Of a stretch of 24,000 nt of DNA, positions 1,438 through 21,757 are shown piece by piece. This DNA comes from an uncultured Thermoplasmatales archaeon (lineage in GTDB: Archaea; Thermoplasmatota; E2; DHVEG-1). The notes under the pieces were generated by a model. That model saw only the letters and a program-made list of their open reading frames with translations, was not told the DNA's origin and did not search any database. The DNA lies in the NCBI GenBank assembly GCA_964640555.1, contig CAZXHI010000093.1:45-24044 (forward strand). Direction: 5' to 3'. How positions within the stretch are numbered: position 1 is the stretch's first letter; every line of letters begins with the position of its first letter. Made by a program: the position numbers and the translations under genes.

Positions 1438-2020
1438 CTAGTATGATCTCAAGTGCCAGATCTGCCTCCCAGTTTGCCATAAGACAAACACGTGGGGCCA
1501 AAAGTACATCATCTTCACTAGACTTGGCCTGCTCATCATAGCACATATACAGTGCGCCAAAACGTTTTGTAACAATTCTATCGGAATTTCCATACCCTGC
1601 CACCCCCGACGCAGCAACAACTGGTTTATCCGGAAGTTTCAAAAGTATCTCTTCTACAAATTCTGTCTTTGTTTCAGCATTGTCTAGAGCTTCTATAACT
1701 ACATCAACGTCATGGAATGGCTGTTCCATCGATCCTTTCTCCAGTTTTTGGTTGAGAATTTCAACTTTAACTGCCGAGTTAATTCTTTTTATGTTGTCCT
1801 TTAAAGCTTCGACCTTGATTTTTCCAACTTGGTCCAAGAAATAATATTGCCTATCTAGGTTGCTTTCCTCAATTTCATCAAAATCAACCAGCACAAGTCG
1901 CCCTATTCCAGCACGAGCAAGAGCAACAGCTGCATTAGAACCGAGACCACCAGCCCCTGCAACACCAACACTTGACTTTTGAAGTTTTTCCTTTATTTTA
2001 TCAAATTTTTGTTTGTCCAT
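1418..2020 (-). CDS. thiF: Short ThiF/E1-like adenylyltransferase (200 aa)
   Basis: Rossmann nucleotide loop 'VGVAGAGGLGSNAA' and the E1/ThiF/MoeB signature 'LVDFDEIEESNLDRQ'. It lacks the C-terminal Zn/rhodanese regions of MoeB/UbaA-type enzymes. Translationally overlapped with the ThiS-like gene. Confidence 0.8.
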   Translation of the reverse strand: MDKQKFDKIKEKLQKSSVGVAGAGGLGSNAAVALARAGIGRLVLVDFDEIEESNLDRQYYFLDQVGKIKVEALKDNIKRINSAVKVEILNQKLEKGSMEQPFHDVDVVIEALDNAETKTEFVEEILLKLPDKPVVAASGVAGYGNSDRIVTKRFGALYMCYDEQAKSSEDDVLLAPRVCLMANWEADLALEIILGGDSGY

Positions 2021-2873
2021 AGAGTTGACATTTCTCCTATTTACTTATACCAGTAACCTTTAATCATTTTTACTTCTTTTTCTGGATTTAAACTCCACAT
2101 CTAGTTAATTTGTTTTTTGAGCGCTGGTCATTCCAACTAATACTAATTTAACTAAAGTTCAAAGGGATACTAAAATTTGGTGAACGCTAAGAAGGCTTTT
2201 TTCCATGGTATCTCCCTTTTCTATCGAGGGCTTTGGAAAATCCTTTATAGAAGTCTCTTTATGGTCATCACCATCACTTATGTACAAGGAGTGAGAAATG
2301 GATGAGTTTTAGCAGTTTTATCCTAAAGCAACAGGATCAAAAAAATGAAAGGTTTTGGAGACCGTCCTGCTCTGATGAAACAACAGATAGGTTGGAAACT
2401 TTTTATTCCATTTGTTTGCTTTAGAACGGAAACGGTTAAGCAGAACCTAGGAAAAAATCATAATCTATGGAGAAAAAGGGTCAAAAGTCATTGGAAATAC
2501 GTGAAAAAATCAGGGAAATATAGGAACTTAGCATGATTTCACGTAAATAAAATGGAAATAAAAAAACAGAAGATTATCCAAACCGCTCTATAGATTGTAT
2601 GCTTCAGCCAGATGAAGGAGAACCCAAAGAATACTGTGCTGTAAAAACAAAAAAGAATAGTTTTATCTCTAGTGTTCTTAAAAAATTCGATAGAAAACCA
2701 AAAGAACCTAAAATTAATTTTTCCCTCGATGACATTCTCCTTGTAAATGGCCCGCCACTGGAAAAATAATTAGATTCCATAATAAATCGTCTTTTTTAAA
2801 ATACATCACACAAAGCAAATATTTAAGAAGGTGATTTTTATATGACCCCCCATTAGAACATAGGAGCATAAAA

Positions 2874-3068
2874 ATGACAGAAGGAACAGTAAAATTCTTT
2901 AACATGAGAAAAAACTTTGGGTTTATAACCGGGGACGATGGAAAAGATTACTTCGTCCATACAAGCGGATTAGCCGAAGGAACTTCATTAAATGAAGGAG
3001 ATAAAGTCTCTTTTGAAGTTGTCGAAGGAGATAAAGGCGAAAAGGCTGAGAAAGTTAAAAAGCTTTAA
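2874..3068 (+). CDS. Cold-shock domain protein (CspA family, 64 aa)
   Basis: MTEGTVKFFNMRKNFGFITGDDGKDYFVHTSGL... carries RNP1-like 'KNFGFI' and RNP2-like 'YFVHT' motifs. SD-like 'taggag' lies about 8 nt upstream of the ATG. Confidence 0.9.
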   Translation: MTEGTVKFFNMRKNFGFITGDDGKDYFVHTSGLAEGTSLNEGDKVSFEVVEGDKGEKAEKVKKL

Positions 3069-3154
3069 TCCCTTTTTTAAATTATCCATATAAGAACATG
3101 GATTTGTTACAAATCAATCTTGAGGTTGAGTTGTAATAGTTGTTTGTCGAAAGA

Positions 3155-3185
3155 GTGGGTGCTAATGCCCACAGACGTTTTTTTT
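3155..3185 (+). terminator. Hairpin plus T8 tract, about 90 nt downstream of csp
   Basis: GTGGG (3155-3159) pairs with CCCAC (3168-3172) across an 8-nt loop, followed by agacg and TTTTTTTT (3178-3185). A T6 run also lies directly after the csp stop (about 3072-3078). Oligo-T tracts are archaeal termination signals. Confidence 0.4.
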
Positions 3186-3339
3186 ATCCATCAAAACCCC
3201 CATTTAGAGTATAAACAATAGTGGCGATAAGTTATATCCCCATTGAAGATATTCGCCAATAGTTAAAGTGTGAACATTGAACCATTAGCAGGTATTCCTA
3301 ACGAGAATATACTATTTATTAACATGATTAGTTTATGAA

Positions 3340-3627
3340 ATGGAAAATGGAAGATTATTTATTATCTATTGTAACCAAAGTAGTCGTCTCAGTAGCTGGA
3401 AACTAGATGAAAGTACAATCAACTTTGACATAAATCTAAGGGATTTTCAATTAGATGAACAGCGAAATTTATCAAAAATCGACAATCTCCGAATTGTTGC
3501 TAAATTACCCACATCAAACAAAGGCATCAAAAAACAACCCAATATTATGCGTTTACTCGTTGCTGGTAGTATTGAGTTCATCAAATATTTAGGGACAAAA
3601 AAAACGATTCTCCATCTTCACAAGTAA
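3340..3627 (+). CDS. Hypothetical protein (95 aa), no recognisable motif
   Basis: Only the ORF-track entry supports it. It lies in a gene-poor, AT-rich stretch and I see no clear SD. Confidence 0.3.
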   Translation: MENGRLFIIYCNQSSRLSSWKLDESTINFDINLRDFQLDEQRNLSKIDNLRIVAKLPTSNKGIKKQPNIMRLLVAGSIEFIKYLGTKKTILHLHK

Positions 3628-3810
3628 AACAAGATTTCAAACTATTTTTATTACATATGAAAATATGCCCCCGTTGGGAATTACATTGTTCACCAGGAGC
3701 AAATTTTAGGAGAATTTTGTAAAATAGATAGAGTCTTGTTTTATATTAATTCTGTTCAGATCGTGGAATGAATATCAATTTGAAAAAATACATATGTTAA
3801 CAGTATTTAC

Positions 3811-3945
3811 TTAATGTTTGGCTAATGCACTAAGTGTTTTTTTATGTCCATTTGCTATTTTAACGATTTCTCGAAATTCTTCATCAGCAATTTTTTTCCT
3901 AGTTTCTTCTGAAATGTTATCTTTCAAATTTTTTGATTTTGCCAT
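3811..3945 (-). CDS. Candidate 44-aa ORF overlapping the 3' end of doc (speculative antitoxin candidate)
   Basis: Manual translation gives ATG (3945-3943) ... TAA (3813-3811): MAKSKNLKDNISEETRKKIADEEFREIVKIANGHKKTLSALAKH. It is in the +1 frame relative to doc, overlaps doc by 29 nt, and is too short for the ORF track to report. No homology recognised. Confidence 0.2.
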   Translation of the reverse strand: MAKSKNLKDNISEETRKKIADEEFREIVKIANGHKKTLSALAKH

Positions 3946-4315
3946 TCATAATCCACTCTTTTATTTCATTTTTAGAATAATAATTTTCTCTTATACCAAT
4001 CATTACCTTAACATTATTTATCGTATCAGGTATATTAAATTTTCCTCCATTATTGAGGACAAACTTTTTTGTTGAGAGAAAAGCAGTTCGTTTATTTCCA
4101 CTTTCAAAAGCATGTATGCGTGTTAATTCAATGAGTAATCGTGCCGCTTTATCATAAATGTCCCCTGGATCTATTTTTGTTTTATCTATAGTTCTTTGTA
4201 TATATGAAACACTAATCGTTTTTGCTTGATCACTTTTACTTTTTCTAAACATTTCAATTGCAATAGTGTTATAATACTGAATCTCATCAATAGTAGGATA
4301 CACAATTACAACCAT
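3917..4315 (-). CDS. doc: Doc (death-on-curing) / Fic-family toxin
   Basis: Fic-fold active-site motif in its Doc variant: 'IHAFESGNKRTAFL' (H-x-F-x-[DE]-x-N-K-R, with Lys where AMPylating Fic proteins have Gly). Size (132 aa) is typical for Doc. Confidence 0.8.
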   Translation of the reverse strand: MVVIVYPTIDEIQYYNTIAIEMFRKSKSDQAKTISVSYIQRTIDKTKIDPGDIYDKAARLLIELTRIHAFESGNKRTAFLSTKKFVLNNGGKFNIPDTINNVKVMIGIRENYYSKNEIKEWIMNGKIKKFER

Positions 4316-4452
4316 GAAAGAGTTGAAAGAGAGGGAAGCGTATAATCTTTACGTTTATTTATAAAAAATATCTAAATTTTCTACATTATGCTAATCAAAC
4401 TATTGTTGGATTGAAATCAAATATCCCTCTCCTATGCCCATACTAAAGTTAG

Positions 4453-4527
4453 TGCTCCCGACGGGATTCGAACCCGTGTAGCCAGCTCGAAAGGCTGGAA
4501 TGATTGACCGGACTACACCACGGGAGC
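4453..4527 (-). tRNA. tRNA-Glu (anticodon UUC), 75 nt, no encoded CCA
   Basis: Reverse complement: GCTCCCGTGGTGTAGTCCGGTCAATCATTCCAGCCTTTCGAGCTGGCTACACGGGTTCGAATCCCGTCGGGAGCA. Folds with a 7-bp acceptor stem (GCTCCCG/CGGGAGC), anticodon stem CCAGC/GCTGG, loop CTTTCGA (U33, anticodon TTC), T arm ACGGG-TTCGAAT-CCCGT and discriminator A. Confidence 0.93.
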
Positions 4528-4535
4528 AAATTGAG

Positions 4536-4607
4536 CAGCCCTGTCCAGATTCGAACTGGAGTCGCTGGCTCCAAAGGCCAGCATGTTAACCACTACACCA
4601 CAGGGCC
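4536..4607 (-). tRNA. tRNA-Gln (anticodon UUG), 72 nt, no encoded CCA
   Basis: Reverse complement: GGCCCTGTGGTGTAGTGGTTAACATGCTGGCCTTTGGAGCCAGCGACTCCAGTTCGAATCTGGACAGGGCTG. Folds with acceptor GGCCCTG/CAGGGCT (G1-U72 wobble), D stem GTGT/ACAT, anticodon stem CTGGC/GCCAG, loop CTTTGGA (anticodon TTG) and T arm TCCAG-TTCGAAT-CTGGA. Only 8 nt separate it from tRNA-Glu, so the two are probably co-transcribed. Confidence 0.9.
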
Positions 4608-14394: not shown

Positions 14395-15384
14395 TTGGAC
14401 ATAATAAAAACAAATAATTTGACAAAAAATTTCGATGGTCTTACAGCAGTTGATAATATATCATTCTCTGTAAAAAAGGGAGAAATCTTTGGTTTTCTAG
14501 GACCCAATGGTGCAGGCAAAACAACCACAATAAAAATGCTTACTACGTTGTTACATCCAACGAAAGGTTCTGCTGAGATTGCTGGATTTGACATTACTGC
14601 TGCAAGAGATAAAGTTAGGCAAAATATAGGGGTTGTATTCCAGGAACCTGCTCTTGATATAGAGCTTACTGGAGGAGAAAATCTCGAATATCATGCAAGA
14701 ATGTATGGTCTTAATCGAGATAAAAGAAAAACTAGGATAGATGATGTTCTAAGCTTAGTCGACCTTGAGGATAAAAAAAACGTTCTTGTGAAAAATTATT
14801 CTGGCGGGATGAAGAGAAGACTTGAAATAGCACGTGGTCTGATGCATTATCCAACGGTTTTGTTTCTTGATGAACCCACGCTTGGTCTTGATGCACAAAC
14901 AAGAAGAGCCATATGGAATTATATTGGGAAGATGAATAAAGAAGAAGGTACCACTATTTTTTTAACAACACATTATATGGATGAAGCTGACTTTCTTTGC
15001 GATAGAATTGGAATTATAGATCACGGTAGCATCCTTGTTATCGATTCAGTTACAAATCTTAAAAATTCTGTTGGTAATGATGTAATAACGCTTTCATGTT
15101 CAGATATGGTCAAATTAGTTAAAAGATTGGAAGAAGAATCATGGATTAGTAATATAGAACAACATGACTCGTTTGTAACACTGGGTGTAGAAAAAGGAGA
15201 GGAAAAGATACCCGTTATAATTGAGATTGCTCAAAGTCTGAATATAAGGATTAAATCAATCAGTGTCAGAAAACCAACACTTGATGACGTATTTCTCCAT
15301 TTTACAGGTAGGACAATGCGCGACCAAGAGGCAGCAAATACTGCTAGAAGTGTACCTCCTAGATTCCATGGTAGAAGGAGATAG
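14395..15384 (+). CDS. ABC transporter ATP-binding protein (ABC-2 / DrrA-like exporter subunit)
   Basis: Walker A 'GPNGAGKTT', Q-loop, signature 'YSGGMKRRLEIA', Walker B 'VLFLDEPTLGLD' and H-loop 'TTHYMDEA'. TTG start (14395-14397). Confidence 0.92.
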   Translation: MDIIKTNNLTKNFDGLTAVDNISFSVKKGEIFGFLGPNGAGKTTTIKMLTTLLHPTKGSAEIAGFDITAARDKVRQNIGVVFQEPALDIELTGGENLEYHARMYGLNRDKRKTRIDDVLSLVDLEDKKNVLVKNYSGGMKRRLEIARGLMHYPTVLFLDEPTLGLDAQTRRAIWNYIGKMNKEEGTTIFLTTHYMDEADFLCDRIGIIDHGSILVIDSVTNLKNSVGNDVITLSCSDMVKLVKRLEEESWISNIEQHDSFVTLGVEKGEEKIPVIIEIAQSLNIRIKSISVRKPTLDDVFLHFTGRTMRDQEAANTARSVPPRFHGRRR

Positions 15385-16250: not shown

Positions 16251-17120
16251 TCACTTTGTTTTCTCCTCTACACAGTTTCTAAATGTTTTAATCATGTTTA
16301 TCAGAGAACATGCCACTGTTACTGGTCCAACTCCTCCAGGCACAGGTGTAATTTTCCCAGCTTTTTCCTTCACAGAATCAAAATCTACATCTCCGCATAT
16401 GCCATCCTTTGTATTCACTATTCCAACGTCTATTACAAAAGCGTTTTTCTTTACATACTCACTTGTTATTATCCTTGGTATCCCTGTGGCTGTTACAAGA
16501 ACATCTGCCCTAGATGCATATTGTTTTGTATTCTTTGTGAAAACATGACAAACGGAAACCGTGGCATTCCTGTTAAGAAATAGAGCAGAAAGTGGCTTTC
16601 CCACGACATTACTATGGTTAATAATAACTATGTCCTTTCCTTTGAGATCCATGTTTTCGTGTTCCAAAATAGTAAGCACCGATAGCGGGGTACATGGCAC
16701 AATATATTCATCACCGATTAGAGTTCTACCCATATTATATGGAGTAAATCCCTCCACGTCCTTTTTGGGATCTATTGCATTCATCAGTATATCTGAAGAA
16801 ATATGACCTGGTATAGGAAACTGTATCAGAATTCCATGAACGCTTTTGTCTTCATTTAATTCAGATATGGAACGTAAAATTTCATTTTCAGAAACATTCT
16901 GTGGAAACTCTAGATGATTTGACACTATCCCTGCCTTTTTACAGGCATTATCCCTTAGCCTCAAATAAAGAGCTGATGTTTGATCCTCACCAATTTTAAT
17001 TGTGGTTATATTCGGCGTAGTTTTGTATCTTAATTTTAATTGTTCTACTTCCTCAGCAGTTTTTCCGTGTAGGTTACCTGCTATTTCCCTTCCATCAATA
17101 ATTTTTGCAGTCATTTTCAA
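16251..17120 (-). CDS. folD: Bifunctional methylenetetrahydrofolate dehydrogenase / methenyl-THF cyclohydrolase
   Basis: 'AKIIDGREIA', 'YLRLRDNACKKAGI', 'GILIQFPIP', 'DPKKDVEGFTPYN', 'PCTPLSV', 'VVGKPL' and 'ITPVPGGVGPVT'. The track start (17120) is TTG. The ATG at 17114-17112 (MTAKIIDG...) is the more likely start. Confidence 0.93.
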   Translation of the reverse strand: MKMTAKIIDGREIAGNLHGKTAEEVEQLKLRYKTTPNITTIKIGEDQTSALYLRLRDNACKKAGIVSNHLEFPQNVSENEILRSISELNEDKSVHGILIQFPIPGHISSDILMNAIDPKKDVEGFTPYNMGRTLIGDEYIVPCTPLSVLTILEHENMDLKGKDIVIINHSNVVGKPLSALFLNRNATVSVCHVFTKNTKQYASRADVLVTATGIPRIITSEYVKKNAFVIDVGIVNTKDGICGDVDFDSVKEKAGKITPVPGGVGPVTVACSLINMIKTFRNCVEEKTK

Positions 17121-17153: not shown

Positions 17154-17187
17154 CCTCTGGTTATAGTTTCAGCTTGGTTACAAAATC
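17154..17187. repeat. att-like site A: core CCTCTGGTT plus right arm Z
   Basis: cctctggttatagtttcagcttggttacaaaatc matches 18299-18332 at 32 of 34 positions. Lies between the heliorhodopsin stop and the folD start. Confidence 0.85.
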
Positions 17188-17236
17188 AGGAAACTTTGTA
17201 ATACAATGTCTTGTATACATATGAAGGTATTCTTTT

Positions 17237-18166
17237 TTAAACTGGCCTTAGTGTTCCTGCAAATACCTGCCATGCTAAAGCTGATTTTGCAATTAAACTT
17301 AGGACAATATACATTCTTTCCCCATATAGATAATCTTTCCATTTGCCAATTTTTTTGTATTGGAGAAACATGTTTATTGCAAATAAGTTAAAGAATATTG
17401 CAATAGTAATAAATATTACAATTACAAAATCAGGAACTGATTCTGCAGTTATTAGTGGAATGAAGATAACAATCCATGGAATAAATCCTGAAATACAGCC
17501 AATAGAATAGGATGTCCAATTTGTTTTTTCGGTTGTTTGATTATGTAACTCCATCATTAATCCCATTAGATTCATTACAGCGGTTAATGTGAATAATGCG
17601 ATGATTGTACCAATATCGTAAATTGTAACAAGCATTGAAATAATAACTATCATTAGAGATGCACTTAATGAATATTCAATCCATCTTGCCGGATTCATAT
17701 GTTTTTTAAGTTTTTTTACATACCACTTATAAAGAACAGTTGCAATAAGAAAATGTGCTGTTGCAGACATAAATATAAAAAGTGCTACTAATGGCCCAAT
17801 ACGAACATCGATAAATGATACTGCAACTGGGATAATTGTTTGAGTTGTTGTGTTATATTCCGGTGTTGAATAAGTTAACGGTAGAGCAAAATCCTTACTG
17901 AGAATTAGTATTAAACAACCTTGGATAAAATGAAAAAAACCCATGATTGCATTGAACCTTCTTAATCTGGTAAAACATTCTTCTCCAATTTTAGTAAAAC
18001 AATCTACTGTTTTTGAATTTGTTTCTTCTGATGGAAAAGTAAATTTTCCATATGTATTACAATTTGGACAACTTAATTCAATTGTTTGATTAAGTCCCCC
18101 TTTTACATTAAATTGATGTTTACAATTTGGACAACTTATTTCCTTTTCAATAAATTTAGCTTTCAT
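17237..18166 (-). CDS. Heliorhodopsin with N-terminal zinc-ribbon domain (309 aa)
   Basis: Matches heliorhodopsin family blocks as I recall them from the prototype 48C12: 'RRFNAIMGFFHFIQ' (TM1 His79), 'SATAHFLI' (His138), 'NPARWIEYSLSASLMIVII' (counterion Glu164) and 'QYKKIGKWKDYLYGERMYIVLSLIAKSALAWQVFAGTLRPV' (Schiff-base Lys294, codon 17287-17285). Residues 1-66 are an extension carrying C12-P-N-C15 ... C33-P-N-C36 (MJ0042-like CPxC-x17-CPxC zinc ribbon) plus C56 and C64. There is no internal Met before residue 75, which lies inside TM1. Confidence 0.93.
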   Translation of the reverse strand: MKAKFIEKEISCPNCKHQFNVKGGLNQTIELSCPNCNTYGKFTFPSEETNSKTVDCFTKIGEECFTRLRRFNAIMGFFHFIQGCLILILSKDFALPLTYSTPEYNTTTQTIIPVAVSFIDVRIGPLVALFIFMSATAHFLIATVLYKWYVKKLKKHMNPARWIEYSLSASLMIVIISMLVTIYDIGTIIALFTLTAVMNLMGLMMELHNQTTEKTNWTSYSIGCISGFIPWIVIFIPLITAESVPDFVIVIFITIAIFFNLFAINMFLQYKKIGKWKDYLYGERMYIVLSLIAKSALAWQVFAGTLRPV

Positions 18167-18277
18167 ATTTTCTATCCAAAATTTATGAATTCAGTTATGA
18201 TAAAAGAATGTATCGATTTTTACCTAATATCAAATCTCCATCAAAATCAGCAAGTAATAAAGTTACTCTTTTTATTT

Positions 18278-18332
18278 TATACACAATAAATAATTAAACC
18301 TCTGGTTATATCTTCAGCTTGGTTACAAAATC
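18278..18332. repeat. att-like site B: left arm X plus core plus right arm Z (the complete site)
   Basis: tatacacaataaataattaaaCCTCTGGTTatatcttcagcttggttacaaaatc. The left 30 nt match 19537-19566 at 29/30. The right 34 nt match 17154-17187 at 32/34. Confidence 0.85.
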
Positions 18333-18340
18333 TGTTTAAT

Positions 18341-18373
18341 TTTTTGAAATATAAACAATAAATAATTAAATCT
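18341..18373. repeat. Extra copy of arm X without a core
   Basis: tttttgaaatataaacaataaataattaaatct matches 19528-19560 (tttttaaaatataaacaataaataattaaacct) at 31/33. Lies 8 nt from the end of site B. Confidence 0.8.
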
Positions 18374-18553
18374 ATTTATCTTCCCCTTCTTTAAGATTAA
18401 TAATGACTAGCTTCACTTACCTCCTTTTATGTTCAGCTTCTAAATTTCTAAATAGTAGGACAGACCATATTTTTTCCACCTTTTAGAACACTGTAAAAAG
18501 GGTTAAGTTAATAGCATTGAAAAAGCCTATTCTGGGTATCCAACAAAATTTTT

Positions 18554-19429
18554 TTATGGAAGTGGCATTTCCACAATTTTTACATGCTGTGCATAACCAA
18601 GATAATAACAAGATAATCCGTTTTGGATAACTGTCCCACGAAAATCAGTTATACCAACATACCAGTATCCCCATTCTAACATGTCTCCAAAACCTTTCTT
18701 CCGAATGTTTCCATACATTGAGGTGTCATTCCAACTAACCTCTCCGTTTTGTCCAGATGACCACAACCATCCCCTTGAAGGATTATAATATGTATCATCC
18801 CCTCCGAATGTTTCAGAATATCCTATACCTATGGTGGCATTTATATCAAATGGAAATAAATTTTCAATTTCATCTAGATCAAAATCAAACAACCATTTGA
18901 AATAAGGTGATAAAAACCCTAGACTATTAATCAGAAATAATTCAAAGTTAGTAAACCTACCCCAAACACGAGTGTTTGAAATTTCTCCACAAATTTCGCA
19001 ATCCCAGTTTTCATTTTCACCGTAGGTAATAACATCAGAATGAGATATTTTTTCTAATAATCCATTTCCCCCTTGATTTGGGTTTATCCTAAATGGTATA
19101 TCAAATGTTTCTTTGGTAAGTAACCATGAAATTAAATTAAGTTTATTTAGCTCTATTATGGTATCAATAAATAAAAATTCTTCTTTTTCCATATTTGTTT
19201 TCTCATCCAATTTGTTATACAATTTATCAAAAAGCGCATCGAGTCTTTCAACATCTTCTGTAGACAATCTCACATTATATTTTTTTATTCCATTGACATT
19301 ACATATTTGAACTGTTGTAATCACATGATCCTGTTTTGATATTGGTGGATGTATATCATAAGCTAACGTTTGAGTAATAAATAACCCAATAACGATAATC
19401 ACGATTCCTGGAGTTAACATATTCTTCAT
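18554..19429 (-). CDS. Hypothetical secreted or membrane-anchored protein (291 aa), W/Y/G-rich C-terminal domain
   Basis: N-terminal hydrophobic signal/anchor 'GIVIIVIGLFITQTLA'. The rest has no motif I recognise (…YYNPSRGWLWSSGQNGEVSWNDTSMYGN…EWGYWYVGITDFRG…). Confidence 0.6.
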   Translation of the reverse strand: MKNMLTPGIVIIVIGLFITQTLAYDIHPPISKQDHVITTVQICNVNGIKKYNVRLSTEDVERLDALFDKLYNKLDEKTNMEKEEFLFIDTIIELNKLNLISWLLTKETFDIPFRINPNQGGNGLLEKISHSDVITYGENENWDCEICGEISNTRVWGRFTNFELFLINSLGFLSPYFKWLFDFDLDEIENLFPFDINATIGIGYSETFGGDDTYYNPSRGWLWSSGQNGEVSWNDTSMYGNIRKKGFGDMLEWGYWYVGITDFRGTVIQNGLSCYYLGYAQHVKIVEMPLP

Positions 19430-19527
19430 TTACGCATCCATTGTATTATAAGGAACGTAATAAAATATAAATGTTATGCAAAAGTAAATCAGTCAGAATT
19501 ATTACTTACATCTTATTCATTTTATGG

Positions 19528-19566
19528 TTTTTAAAATATAAACAATAAATAATTAAACCTCTGGTT
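19528..19566. repeat. att-like site C: left arm X plus core, overlapping the methyltransferase stop codon
   Basis: tttttaaaatataaacaataaataattaaaCCTCTGGTT. The minus strand reads ...AAA CCA GAG GTT TAA (K P E V stop) of the 19553-20383 gene. Confidence 0.85.
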
Positions 19567-20383
19567 TTCTGCCTATCGCATAGAATTGTGGAAAGAAGTT
19601 GAGTTGTACGCCCTCATCAAGTGATTTTAGATATTCATATTCCCATTTGTCGATTTCTTCTTCGGAAAGCCCTGCACCTTTCAGTGCTTTTACATAGAAA
19701 TCCCTTGCGTGTAGGTAATATGATTTATCCTCTTCACAACTCCATATACGATTGTTTCCTATGCCTACTTTAGTTTCAAGTCCTGCCCTTACAAATAGCA
19801 AACGAAGTTTTCTACCGATGTGTGGATCCCCTCCCCGCTCTTTGATTGCTTTACCAGCAAATACTACATCAATCTTTGGGTTTTCAGGATAGTGTAATTT
19901 GCCACCGTAATCAGGTTCAAGAGATGCAAGTACTCTACCACCAGGTTTTGTAACACGCGTCATTTCATTGACTACCTTCTGTGGATTGTCTACCCACATA
20001 AAAAAAAGATTGCAGGTGACAATATCAAAAGTATTATCTCTAAATGGAATGGTTTCCGCACTACCAACGTACAGATCCACGTTTTTATAGTCTTTGAGAA
20101 TGTTTTTTGCTACTTCTATCATATCGCCCGACCCATCTATTCCAATCACTTTACCCTTCGTAAGGTGAGCAATATCCTTTGTAACGGTTCCTGATCCGCA
20201 GCCCACATCTAAAACATTTTCTGCATCCTTAAGCCCCACTTCTAGATACAGAGGTATCCTTTCTTCTGCTGTTTCCAATGCCTGCAGTTCCAATTTTTTA
20301 ATGAAATCATTTAGATCCTCTTTTGATCTTTTATGAAATTCAATATTCTTCTTTTTCTTCATTTTAATGACAAAAACAGACAT
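19553..20383 (-). CDS. Class I SAM-dependent methyltransferase
   Basis: Motif I 'VLDVGCGSGTVT', then 'VIGIDGS', 'FDIVTCNLFFMWV' and 'MTRVTKPGGRV'. An alternative start is the ATG at 20362 (MKKKKN...). Confidence 0.85.
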   Translation of the reverse strand: MSVFVIKMKKKKNIEFHKRSKEDLNDFIKKLELQALETAEERIPLYLEVGLKDAENVLDVGCGSGTVTKDIAHLTKGKVIGIDGSGDMIEVAKNILKDYKNVDLYVGSAETIPFRDNTFDIVTCNLFFMWVDNPQKVVNEMTRVTKPGGRVLASLEPDYGGKLHYPENPKIDVVFAGKAIKERGGDPHIGRKLRLLFVRAGLETKVGIGNNRIWSCEEDKSYYLHARDFYVKALKGAGLSEEEIDKWEYEYLKSLDEGVQLNFFPQFYAIGRKPEV

Positions 20384-20458: not shown

Positions 20459-21757
20459 ATGAAAGAAGTTATCCTTCAGGTTGCATTAGACCTTCTAAAT
20501 GAACATAGAGCACTTTCTATAGCCCAAGATTCAGTAAAGGCCGACAAAGACTGTTGGCTAGAAGCAGGGACCCCCCTGATCAAAAGCGAGGGTATGGACA
20601 TAATAAGAAAACTCAAGCAAACATTTCCAGATAAAACAATCGTTGCTGATATGAAAATCATGGACACTGGTGCGCTTGAGGTTGAGATGGCGACTAAAGC
20701 TGGAGCAGATGTCGTATGTGTGCTCGCTGCATCTGACGATAGCACAATAAAAGATGCATTGAAATCTGCAAGGAAATATGGCTCAAGAATCATGGTTGAT
20801 CTAATCGGCGTTAAAGACAAGGTAACTCGTGCAAAAGAACTAGAAAAACTAGGTGCCGATTACCTATGTATACATATTGGTATAGATGAACAAATGATTG
20901 GAAAAAAACCTATTGATGTTCTTACATCTATCGTTAAAAAAACCGAAATACCAGTCGCCGTTGCTGGCGGACTAAACAGCGAGACTGTTGCAGAGATTGC
21001 CAAGGCGGGTGCAAGTATAATTATTGTAGGTGGTGCTATCACCAAGGCCAAAGATGTAATCAAGGCAACAAAACAAATAAAAAAAGCAATAATCGAAAAA
21101 AAACCTATTGAGTCTACTCTTTTTAATAAATACGATAAAGCTCACCTGAAAGAAGCATTTTCAATGGTTTCTACGCCAAATATCTCCGATGCGATGCATA
21201 GACAGGGCGCAATGCAAGGCATTAAACCTGTTGTTTCTGGCTTCCATATGGTTGGCAGGGCACTCACTGTTCGTACGATTGATGGAGATTGGGCAAAACC
21301 TATAGAAGCAATAGATGAAACAAATAGGGGCGAGGTTGTAGTAGTGGACGTAAATGGCGGAAAAACAGCAATCTGGGGAGAACTCGCAACGTGGAGTGCA
21401 AAGCTTAAGGGACTTGCTGGCGTGGTGATTGATGGAACAGTTAGGGATCTTGACGATATCGTGAAAATGGATTTCCCAATTTTTTGTAGACATATTGCCC
21501 CAAACGCTGGTGAACCAAAAGGTTTTGGAGAGATCGGTGCTGAAATAAAATGTGGTGGTCAAACCGTAAGAACCGGTGATTGGATTATCGGTGATGATTC
21601 AGGAGTCGTTGTGGTACCGCAGGAAATATCCCAGGAAATTGCCAACCGTTCATTAGGTGTTAAAGAGACTGAGAACCGCATCAGAGAAGAAATAAAAAGC
21701 GGCGGTTCACTTGGAAGTATCCTTAAATTAAAGAAATGGGAGAAGAAAGTGGGATGA
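20459..21757 (+). CDS. Fusion protein: 3-hexulose-6-phosphate synthase (OMPdecase/HUMPS fold) plus RraA-like domain
   Basis: The N-terminal half shows HPS features: 'LQVALDLL', 'IVADMKIMDTG', 'GADVVCV', 'MVDLIGV' and 'VAVAGGLNSET...IIIVGGAITKA'. The C-terminal half shows RraA / HMG-aldolase features: 'NISDAMHRQGAM', 'GRALTVRT', 'GEVVVVDVNGG...AIWGELATWSAKLKGLAGVVIDGTVRDLDD' and 'GDDSGVVVVP'. Confidence 0.85.
   Translation: MKEVILQVALDLLNEHRALSIAQDSVKADKDCWLEAGTPLIKSEGMDIIRKLKQTFPDKTIVADMKIMDTGALEVEMATKAGADVVCVLAASDDSTIKDALKSARKYGSRIMVDLIGVKDKVTRAKELEKLGADYLCIHIGIDEQMIGKKPIDVLTSIVKKTEIPVAVAGGLNSETVAEIAKAGASIIIVGGAITKAKDVIKATKQIKKAIIEKKPIESTLFNKYDKAHLKEAFSMVSTPNISDAMHRQGAMQGIKPVVSGFHMVGRALTVRTIDGDWAKPIEAIDETNRGEVVVVDVNGGKTAIWGELATWSAKLKGLAGVVIDGTVRDLDDIVKMDFPIFCRHIAPNAGEPKGFGEIGAEIKCGGQTVRTGDWIIGDDSGVVVVPQEISQEIANRSLGVKETENRIREEIKSGGSLGSILKLKKWEKKVG

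Follow-up and report, generated by a model that had tools for sequence, protein, structure and literature searches.

Heliorhodopsins (HeRs) carry their N-terminus on the cytoplasmic side of the membrane. We have analyzed the gene of a HeR that is preceded by a zinc ribbon (positions 17237-18166, minus strand) in a 24,000-nt stretch of DNA from an uncultured Thermoplasmatales archaeon (hereafter the window; GenBank assembly GCA_964640555.1, contig CAZXHI010000093.1, positions 45 to 24,044). The fusion of these two domains has been known since 2021, when Bulzu et al. (2021, mSphere 6:e00661-21; PMC8612252) described six Thermoplasmatales sequences as N-terminal variant ntv1 and named them Znf-HeR; the window protein is a further member of this group. 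The published motif is CxxC-17x-CxxC, with a zinc_ribbon_4 match by HHpred, and the ribbon was modeled as intracellular and proposed to recruit partners and to signal downstream (PMC8612252). Genes next to Znf-HeR were found to include carotenoid, photolyase, and UvdE genes and one histidine kinase gene, and HeRs were tied more generally to light-induced oxidative stress, with reported zinc binding by the HeRs TaHeR and 48C12 (PMC8612252). The work is cited by Cho et al. (2022), and the literature that we searched, in which most subscription journals are not covered, yielded no experimental study of a Znf-HeR. A first-pass annotation of the window, made from the DNA letters alone, likewise suggested that the ribbon could serve as an attached output domain or bind a partner; this is a hypothesis in print since 2021 and a plausible one.

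The window protein shares with the published Znf-HeRs the N-terminal CxxC-17x-CxxC, the Thermoplasmatota host, the cytoplasmic-ribbon model, and the signaling proposal, and carotenoid, photolyase, and UvdE genes likewise lie beside some of the Znf-HeR genes analyzed here. The two data sets differ in size (six sequences there, the 120 closest homologue clusters and six to eight GTDB species here), and the window gene itself differs in that it has no photoprotection neighbors and sits in a strain-variable cassette. The MORN-HeRs of Bulzu et al. also have an N-terminal cytoplasmic domain fused to the HeR and proposed as an interaction surface, but this domain consists of MORN repeats and the hosts are haloalkaliphilic Firmicutes. 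Outside the rhodopsins, the closest comparison is with ZitP and GltJ (AgmX), which have an N-terminal cytoplasmic zinc ribbon (ZnR; CxxC-x19-CxxC, residues ∼1-40) followed by a linker and TM (transmembrane) helices; PopZ is bound by the ZitP ZnR (PMC5182065), and in GltJ the ZnR acts as a switch that binds MglB and the protein's own linker (PMC11135422). According to the respective papers these ribbons are one strand short of the classical fold, whereas four strands are predicted for the window ribbon. Moreover, both are bacterial bitopic proteins with other downstream domains, and the window ribbon scores below the cut-off of PF13719 (zinc_ribbon_5; 18.6 bits, cut-off 29.3). In haloarchaea, finally, the bacteriorhodopsin gene is regulated by the small zinc-finger protein Brz. 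It is similar in being a small archaeal Cys4 ribbon tied to rhodopsin biology, but it is a free-standing soluble protein, and the window ribbon matches it at sub-threshold level over half the domain.

Results

The window gene encodes a complete heliorhodopsin

The minus-strand open reading frame (ORF) at 17237-18166 comprises 309 codons plus a stop and starts with ATG, and both Pfam and NCBIfam identify its product as a HeR, as the first-pass annotation had done: the Pfam Heliorhodopsin family PF18761 matches residues 68-306 (17249-17965, minus strand) over profile positions 1-242 of 242 with 321 bits (E = 5.6e-96, curated cut-off 26.7), and NCBIfam HeR NF038020 matches with 346.6 bits (cut-off 100). 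The residues by which the family is recognized, i.e., a Schiff-base Lys in TM7, a counterion Glu in TM3, and two His, are present as K294 (codon at 17285-17287, minus strand), E164, H79, and H138, all four invariant among 71 aligned homologues; they and the cysteines discussed below (C12, C15, C33, C36, C56, and C64) are found exactly where the first-pass annotation had placed them. H79, H138, E164, and K294 align with residues of 6is6_A that we take to be TaHeR H23, H82, E108, and K238. TaHeR (from Thermoplasmatales archaeon SG8-52-1; PDB: 6is6, 7clj, 7u55) is the nearest relative that lacks the ribbon; over the 7-TM domain its identity is 73% with the window protein and 71-78% with Znf-HeRs in general, and all functional residues are common to both, the entry into helix A (FRKFRIFN) included. 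From the 73% identity, together with the basic stretch RLRRFN ahead of TM1, we infer N-in topology, retinal binding, and a slow photocycle for the window HeR.

Upstream of the ATG the frame stays open for eight codons only (stop to stop). Downstream of it, the next possible in-frame start codon (ATG, GTG, or TTG) is that of M75 within TM1, in agreement with the earlier statement that no ATG occurs before residue 75. The identical 309-aa protein is called on six independent metagenome contigs.

An invariant four-cysteine ribbon precedes the first transmembrane helix

The N-terminal extension (residues 1-66) is in frame ahead of TM1 and carries the motif C12PNC15-x17-C33PNC36. Its core, as delimited by AlphaFold2 and by conservation, spans residues 5-45 (18032-18154, on the minus strand like the other parts of the extension), with predicted strands at residues 5-11, 18-24, 28-32, and 39-43; the first knuckle, C12-P-N-C15, is encoded at 18122-18133 and the second, C33-P-N-C36, at 18059-18070. 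A linker and an N-terminal extension of helix A follow (residues 46-66; 17969-18031), in which C56 and C64 are located. CxxC...CxxC is found in frame in 120/120 of the closest homologue clusters, which are 69-99% identical to the window protein, mostly 305 aa long, and from Thermoplasmatota metagenome-assembled genomes (MAGs) wherever named. Across 35 diverse N-termini C12, P13, C15, G23, C33, P34, C36, and G40 are invariant, and the x17 spacing between the CxxC pairs is identical in all homologues listed. The invariance of the four cysteines speaks against one of the refuting conditions named in the first-pass annotation (Cys not conserved among orthologs) and, together with the predicted ribbon fold, bears out its description of the protein as a HeR with an in-frame zinc-ribbon extension. 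AlphaFold2 returns a four-strand ribbon with the knuckles at the turns for both the full-length protein and the isolated domain (predicted local distance difference test, pLDDT, 77-89 over the strands and knuckles and ∼81-89 for the core in both models), followed by low values in the linker (pLDDT < 50 at residues 48-57) and a helix that continues into TM1 from residue 57. A four-Cys ribbon of this kind would be expected to bind zinc, and the N-in orientation of HeRs would place it on the cytoplasmic face.

The assignment of the ribbon to a particular family is less firm, and the label 'MJ0042-type' given in the first-pass annotation holds in part: it agrees with the HHpred match of Bulzu et al. 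and with a precomputed PF13717 (Zn_ribbon_4) match in one homologue cluster (P0088), but the scores of the zinc-ribbon hidden Markov models against the window N-terminus all fall below their cut-offs. The top Pfam match is Zn_ribbon_Brz (PF23454; 24.7 bits, cut-off 27.9), which spans residues 30-54, i.e., the second knuckle and hairpin, at profile positions 5-29 of 58; the NCBIfam Brz model NF041795 gives 16.1 bits against the window protein (cut-off 100). PF13717 itself scores 22.9 bits in hmmscan (cut-off 30.3), and MJ0042_CXXC (TIGR02098) scores 19.6 bits (cut-off 20.9) over residues 10-22, the first knuckle only. A word-indexed search with the 72-aa N-terminus alone gave no match, and the ribbon profile found generic zinc fingers only among PDB sequences.

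The two further cysteines noted in the first-pass annotation are present at the places given, but they do not behave as core ligands. Conservation of C56 is at least 90%, position 64 is frequently occupied by Arg, and both Cys are absent in several homologues; because C64 is variable and several homologues lack both, we regard the pair as accessory and as lying outside the likely core ligand set. Most homologues read DCF...xCF over linker residues 45-65 (window 17972-18034), i.e., have Cys at 56 and 64, and those with Arg at position 64 usually have a Cys ∼7 residues ahead of C56, around position 49 (AGTCDPNKVECF). An extra Cys pair that shifts in position in this way could possibly provide an additional, non-obligatory site for a metal or a disulfide.

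The knuckles are also alike at the DNA level. The 19-nt stretch at 18120-18138 is identical to that at 18057-18075, each encoding (I/L)SCPNC(K/N), and lies within a pair of repeats at 18057-18079 and 18120-18142 (23 nt, 96% identity, 63 nt apart); the exact identity reported in the first-pass annotation was thus correct. Given both peptides and the codon usage of the window, the probability of identical codons is ∼0.015, or 0.0045 when flanking bases are included. The origin by internal duplication that had been read from the 19-nt identity does not hold up: in six relatives no more than 10-15 of 18 nt agree between the knuckles, and a Ser ahead of the second knuckle is restricted to the closest relatives. 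The 19-nt identity reflects chance or a recent, lineage-specific micro-conversion and is no relic of the origin of the ribbon, which dates back at least to the base of the 70%-identity clade.

The same ribbon heads unrelated membrane-associated proteins

When 1.84 billion representative proteins were searched with a ribbon profile, 332 of them matched at E ≤ 1e-3. When the best 150 of these were classed by heuristic motif and hydropathy rules, an N-terminal ribbon was followed by an ABC-ATPase-like body in 32 and by at least two TM helices in 29, three or more ribbons stood in tandem in 39, and 20 were short sequences (≤100 aa), either fragments or stand-alone ribbons. ABC_tran was confirmed by Pfam in four full-length ribbon-ABC proteins, with DrrA1-3_C in two. 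One ribbon-ABC protein, P0183 (handles beginning with P denote proteins and those with L loci in our data), is encoded in an operon with an ABC-2 permease (L092:4899-5960), and the named members of its cluster come from Thermoplasmata or Thermoplasmatota MAGs. The ribbon also heads small 4-5-TM proteins without a Pfam family.

HeR ribbons are 46-79% identical to the ABC and small-TM ribbons over ∼40 residues, Znf-HeR ribbons are no closer to each other than to those of the other two architectures, and all three have in common an M-x-x-K-x-I start, a GxPGE loop, and an FTFP strand. Because a ribbon this similar heads ABC ATPases and small 4-5-TM proteins as well, it is a portable, shuffled, lineage-restricted N-terminal module that is not HeR-specific. 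No ribbon-bearing gene other than HeR was found in the window and 87 further loci; the DrrA-type ABC ATPase of the window (14395-15384) has no ribbon, its ABC_tran domain starting at residue 20. As to tandem arrays, 7 matched stretches occur in the 620 aa of P0121 and 18 in the 4066 aa of P0122 (the N-terminal ribbons on ABC ATPases and small TM proteins are found among the profile hits P0130-P0270).

Distribution and ribbon-less relatives

In a survey of GTDB species genomes, the ribbon was present in six (L008-L013) of the best 80 of 442 HeR-encoding loci, all from MAGs named as Thermoplasmatota, Thermoplasmatales, or 'Euryarchaeota UBA33'; two further loci of the same clade (L014 and L015) are cut by contig ends. 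TaHeR differs from these proteins in that the ribbon is absent. Truncation by mis-annotation was considered for TaHeR and is ruled out by the related locus L019, where a stop lies directly upstream of the HeR, and by the lack of a nearby ribbon ORF: none was found near the ribbon-less HeR loci, so there is no split ribbon gene upstream. The TaHeR-like HeR at L019 (8001-8781, from MAG CSMAG_1140) itself has several frameshifts and stops after ∼45 residues, and is either a pseudogene or an assembly error.

In a neighbor-joining tree of HeRs (100 bootstraps; L019 left out), a Znf-HeR group with or without TaHeR and L016 was recovered in 69/100 replicates, with TaHeR/L016 nested inside the Znf-HeRs in 48/100 and strict Znf monophyly in 21/100. 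TaHeR and L016 may accordingly be either sister to the Znf clade or nested in it, the latter implying gain and then loss of the ribbon.

The gene sits in a strain-variable cassette hotspot

On the minus strand, the HeR gene is bounded on its 5′ side by the junction GATTTTGTAACCAAGCTGAAGATAT followed by the 25-nt AACCAGAGGTTTAATTATTTATTGT (18283-18332) and on its 3′ side by GATTTTGTAACCAAGCTGAAACTATAACCAGAGG (17154-17187), directly upstream of FolD. The 9-nt AACCAGAGG is found on both sides of the gene, and the gene is followed by GATTTTGTAACCAAGCTGAAACTAT plus AACCAGAGG at 17187-17154. A second copy of the 25-nt AACCAGAGGTTTAATTATTTATTGT (19542-19566, minus strand) at the end of the methyltransferase gene marks the left edge of a 1.26-kb insertion. 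This insertion carries a 291-aa ORF (18554-19429, minus strand) whose product matches no family and begins with a hydrophobic stretch; perfect direct repeats of 25 nt flank the insertion, which has the same 25-nt-type right end. Every cassette unit has (A/T)TTAATTATTTATT at its start and GATTTTGTAACCAAGCTGAANNTAT at its end, with AACCAGAGG as the boundary, and G+C is 0.30-0.31 in the cassettes versus 0.36-0.38 in the flanks.

The content of the interval between the methyltransferase gene and FolD (17154-19566) varies, with four arrangements of single-gene units among the contigs compared: HeR alone; the 291-aa ORF plus HeR, as in the window; PAD_porph instead of HeR; and a unit X joined to PAD_porph. 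The 1.26-kb unit is present in the window, L002, and L097 and absent in L001, L003, and L004, the HeR protein being identical in all of them. In L095, whose flanks are ∼91% identical to the window, a 370-aa PAD_porph (agmatine-deiminase family) gene replaces HeR within the same boundaries; in L096 (∼90% identical) FolD adjoins this same cassette end, to which a further cassette is joined in L098. Znf-HeR is thus accessory, strain-variable cargo in the window population, which argues for an accessory, niche-dependent role.

Tandem single-ORF cassettes with variable content, a fixed site, and conserved ends recall integrons. A canonical integron was considered and is ruled out by the lack of an attC hairpin at the junctions: the conserved junction folds no better than shuffled sequences on either strand (z from −1.6 to +0.2), and its TAACCA repeats are direct, not inverted. 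Archaeal integrons use canonical attC sites (Ghaly et al., 2022; PMC9668308). No recombinase domain, IntI included, was found in the scanned ORFs of at least 90 aa over the 24 kb of the window. The locus is integron-like in organization and falls outside the integrons proper.

Gene neighborhoods

In the window the neighbors are ordinary genes: FolD (16251-17120) lies downstream of HeR, and the 291-aa orphan ORF and a class-I methyltransferase gene (19553-20383) lie upstream; farther out are the ribbon-less DrrA-type ABC transporter, a hemerythrin, and an ELP3-like radical-SAM protein. Elsewhere, Znf-HeR is found with UvdE, photolyase, and dodecin genes (L005-7, one locus), with genes for phytoene desaturase, phytoene synthase, UvdE, photolyase, a cation diffusion facilitator (CDF) transporter (Cation_efflux, ZT_dimer), and a PAS-histidine kinase (L089), with a phytoene synthase gene within 5 kb and no repair genes (L090), with ABCE1 and folate enzymes (L088), or with Hyp genes (L091).

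A recurrent neighbor is an orphan protein of ∼215 aa with a signal peptide and the mature N-terminus HVPY(I/L)E. Six independent loci have its gene adjacent to Znf-HeR, though not always in the same orientation (L090:5324-5968, plus strand; L089:5224-5931, L005:6754-7404, L008:8959-9534, L013:7224-7841, and L011:2445-3041, all minus strand), and was found neither in the ribbon-less HeR loci fetched nor in the window. The family has 412 members, all named ones from Thermoplasmatota, and for ten of its clusters the longest contig equals in length that of a Znf-HeR cluster. Neither this orphan nor the 291-aa ORF has a Pfam, NCBIfam, or PDB sequence match.

Enzymes of folate one-carbon metabolism stand beside Znf-HeR in two arrangements, FolD in the window and FTCD plus FTHFS in L088 (9793-12921). 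FolD makes 5,10-methenyl-tetrahydrofolate, the antenna cofactor of many photolyases; the adjacency may be a coincidence. Farther along the window, a 432-aa ORF (20459-21757, plus strand) joins an OMPdecase/HUMPS-family domain (residues 6-207) to an RraA-like aldolase (residues 239-385), a fusion also present in L001 and L095. At the other end, genes for tRNA-Glu(TTC) and tRNA-Gln(TTG) are 7 nt apart (4452-4607, minus strand), a short Fic/DOC-domain ORF (3917-4315, minus strand) adjoins the pair, and ORFs of 90 aa or longer are almost absent from the region 2000-3900.

Discussion

For the function of the ribbon, we tentatively favor the reading that it is a cytoplasmic Cys4 protein-docking or regulatory module on a retinal-binding HeR photoreceptor. 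By the identity to TaHeR, and as known for other HeRs, light would isomerize the retinal on K294, and on the same grounds the cytoplasmic face of the 7-TM domain would change upon isomerization. The ribbon, on a flexible tether of ∼15-20 residues beside this face, would either tether a partner, soluble or peripheral, to the receptor or itself be masked and released by the receptor, and the light signal would be passed on to the partner protein. Partner docking is suggested because characterized HeRs act through partner proteins (to judge by the titles of the respective reports, one binds and regulates glutamine synthetase, one helps photolyase in DNA repair, and one mediates light modulation of an ABC transporter), because the only N-terminal ribbons characterized on membrane proteins, those of ZitP and GltJ, are protein-binding modules (the ZitP ZnR being also a weak structural neighbor of the window ribbon), because the ribbon occurs on three unrelated protein bodies, and because its net charge is small (6 K/R versus 3 D/E in 46 residues, i.e., ∼+3).

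A number of observations weigh against this reading. The first-pass annotation had proposed structure prediction as a way to see whether the ribbon packs against the intracellular loops, and AlphaFold2 gives no confident packing there (mean pLDDT of the full-length model, 65.8). The ribbon model has no structural match in the PDB at E ≤ 0.001, the best being Tim15 at E = 0.25, with S27e and the ZitP ZnR (rank 10) among the other weak neighbors. Ribbon codons 5-45 show 10 non-synonymous and 4 synonymous differences between the window and L008, compared with 28 non-synonymous versus 68 synonymous codon differences in the HeR domain of the same pair (83% identical); such fast change at non-Cys positions is unlike a conserved interface, and strong constraint in the ribbon is confined to the metal-binding scaffold. 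TaHeR and L016, whether sister to the Znf clade or nested in it, have no ribbon, and the ribbon is therefore dispensable for basic HeR function. The neighborhoods of Znf-HeR vary, with repair and carotenoid genes, FolD, ABCE1, and Hyp or sulfur-transport genes in different loci, and the data examined did not identify a binding partner.

Poor conservation of the ribbon surface also fits a structural or biogenesis role, in which a fast-folding domain would serve stability, N-in topology, clustering, or oligomerization and take no part in signaling. In membrane and membrane-associated proteins alike, the ribbon is always the N-terminalmost domain, which is in line with such a role, as is the fact that close relatives function without it, TaHeR having been crystallized. 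ABC ATPase subunits, however, need no topology determinant, and the retention of four Cys, two Pro, two Gly, GxPGE, and FTFP over three architectures suggests more than a passive plug. On balance, we consider a purely structural role unlikely.

Many zinc ribbons bind nucleic acids, and the output of the fusion could also lie there, with the protein acting as a membrane-tethered, light-controlled regulator or as a recruiter of damaged DNA to repair enzymes. The top Pfam match to Zn_ribbon_Brz would fit such an output, as would the photolyase and UvdE genes beside Znf-HeR in L005-7 and L089, also noted by Bulzu et al. The Brz match is nonetheless below its cut-off and limited to the second knuckle and hairpin, it is difficult to see why ABC ATPases and small membrane proteins would bind nucleic acids, and the net charge is only ∼+3 and the membrane tether short. 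We consider this alternative quite improbable.

A more far-reaching proposal starts from the portability of the module. The ribbon might be a shared Thermoplasmatota 'handle' that gathers HeR, DrrA-type ATPases, and 4-5-TM proteins at a common hub, or joins them to one another, for example through ribbon-hub or ribbon-ribbon contacts, the Znf-HeR gene in addition moving as a site-specific, integron-like cassette without attC. We rate this combination as speculative and rather unlikely; if true, ABC export or other functions of the membrane would come under the control of light by way of Znf-HeR and its dedicated docking domain.

Very doubtful, in our view, is a redox or metal sensor in which the Cys4 site, together with the variable Cys pair, would release zinc upon oxidation or sense zinc, in combination with light. 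The link of HeRs to light-induced oxidative stress and the zinc binding of TaHeR and 48C12 (PMC8612252) point in this direction, as do the CDF cation-efflux gene in L089 and the usual presence of two extra Cys at 56/64 or ∼49/56, but these are circumstantial points: the CDF gene is a neighbor in a single locus, the extra Cys are missing from several homologues, and Cys4 ribbons are usually structural. That the ribbon is an annotation artefact, i.e., not translated with the rhodopsin because of a downstream start or a separate small gene, is scarcely credible even with an uncultured source organism and a ribbon-less TaHeR as the model HeR of the clade, given the lack of ATG, GTG, or TTG before M75 inside TM1, the single open frame with invariant Cys in 120/120 homologues of 69-99% identity, and the same 309-aa product on six independent contigs.

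Beyond the 2021 description, the present analysis adds the portability of the ribbon, TaHeR as the nearest ribbon-less relative, the recurrent orphan neighbor, and the cassette hotspot. For the docking reading and its alternatives alike, any function proposed for the ribbon must fit the HeR, ABC ATPase, and small-TM contexts, and a partner shared among them can be searched for. The secreted orphan neighbor and the photolyase and UvdE genes are concrete candidates for co-expression, and TaHeR, crystallized, spectroscopically characterized, and 73% identical, is a natural ribbon-less control. The function of HeRs is still debated, and few HeRs offer as direct a hint of their output in their own sequence as those with a cytoplasmic domain covalently attached.

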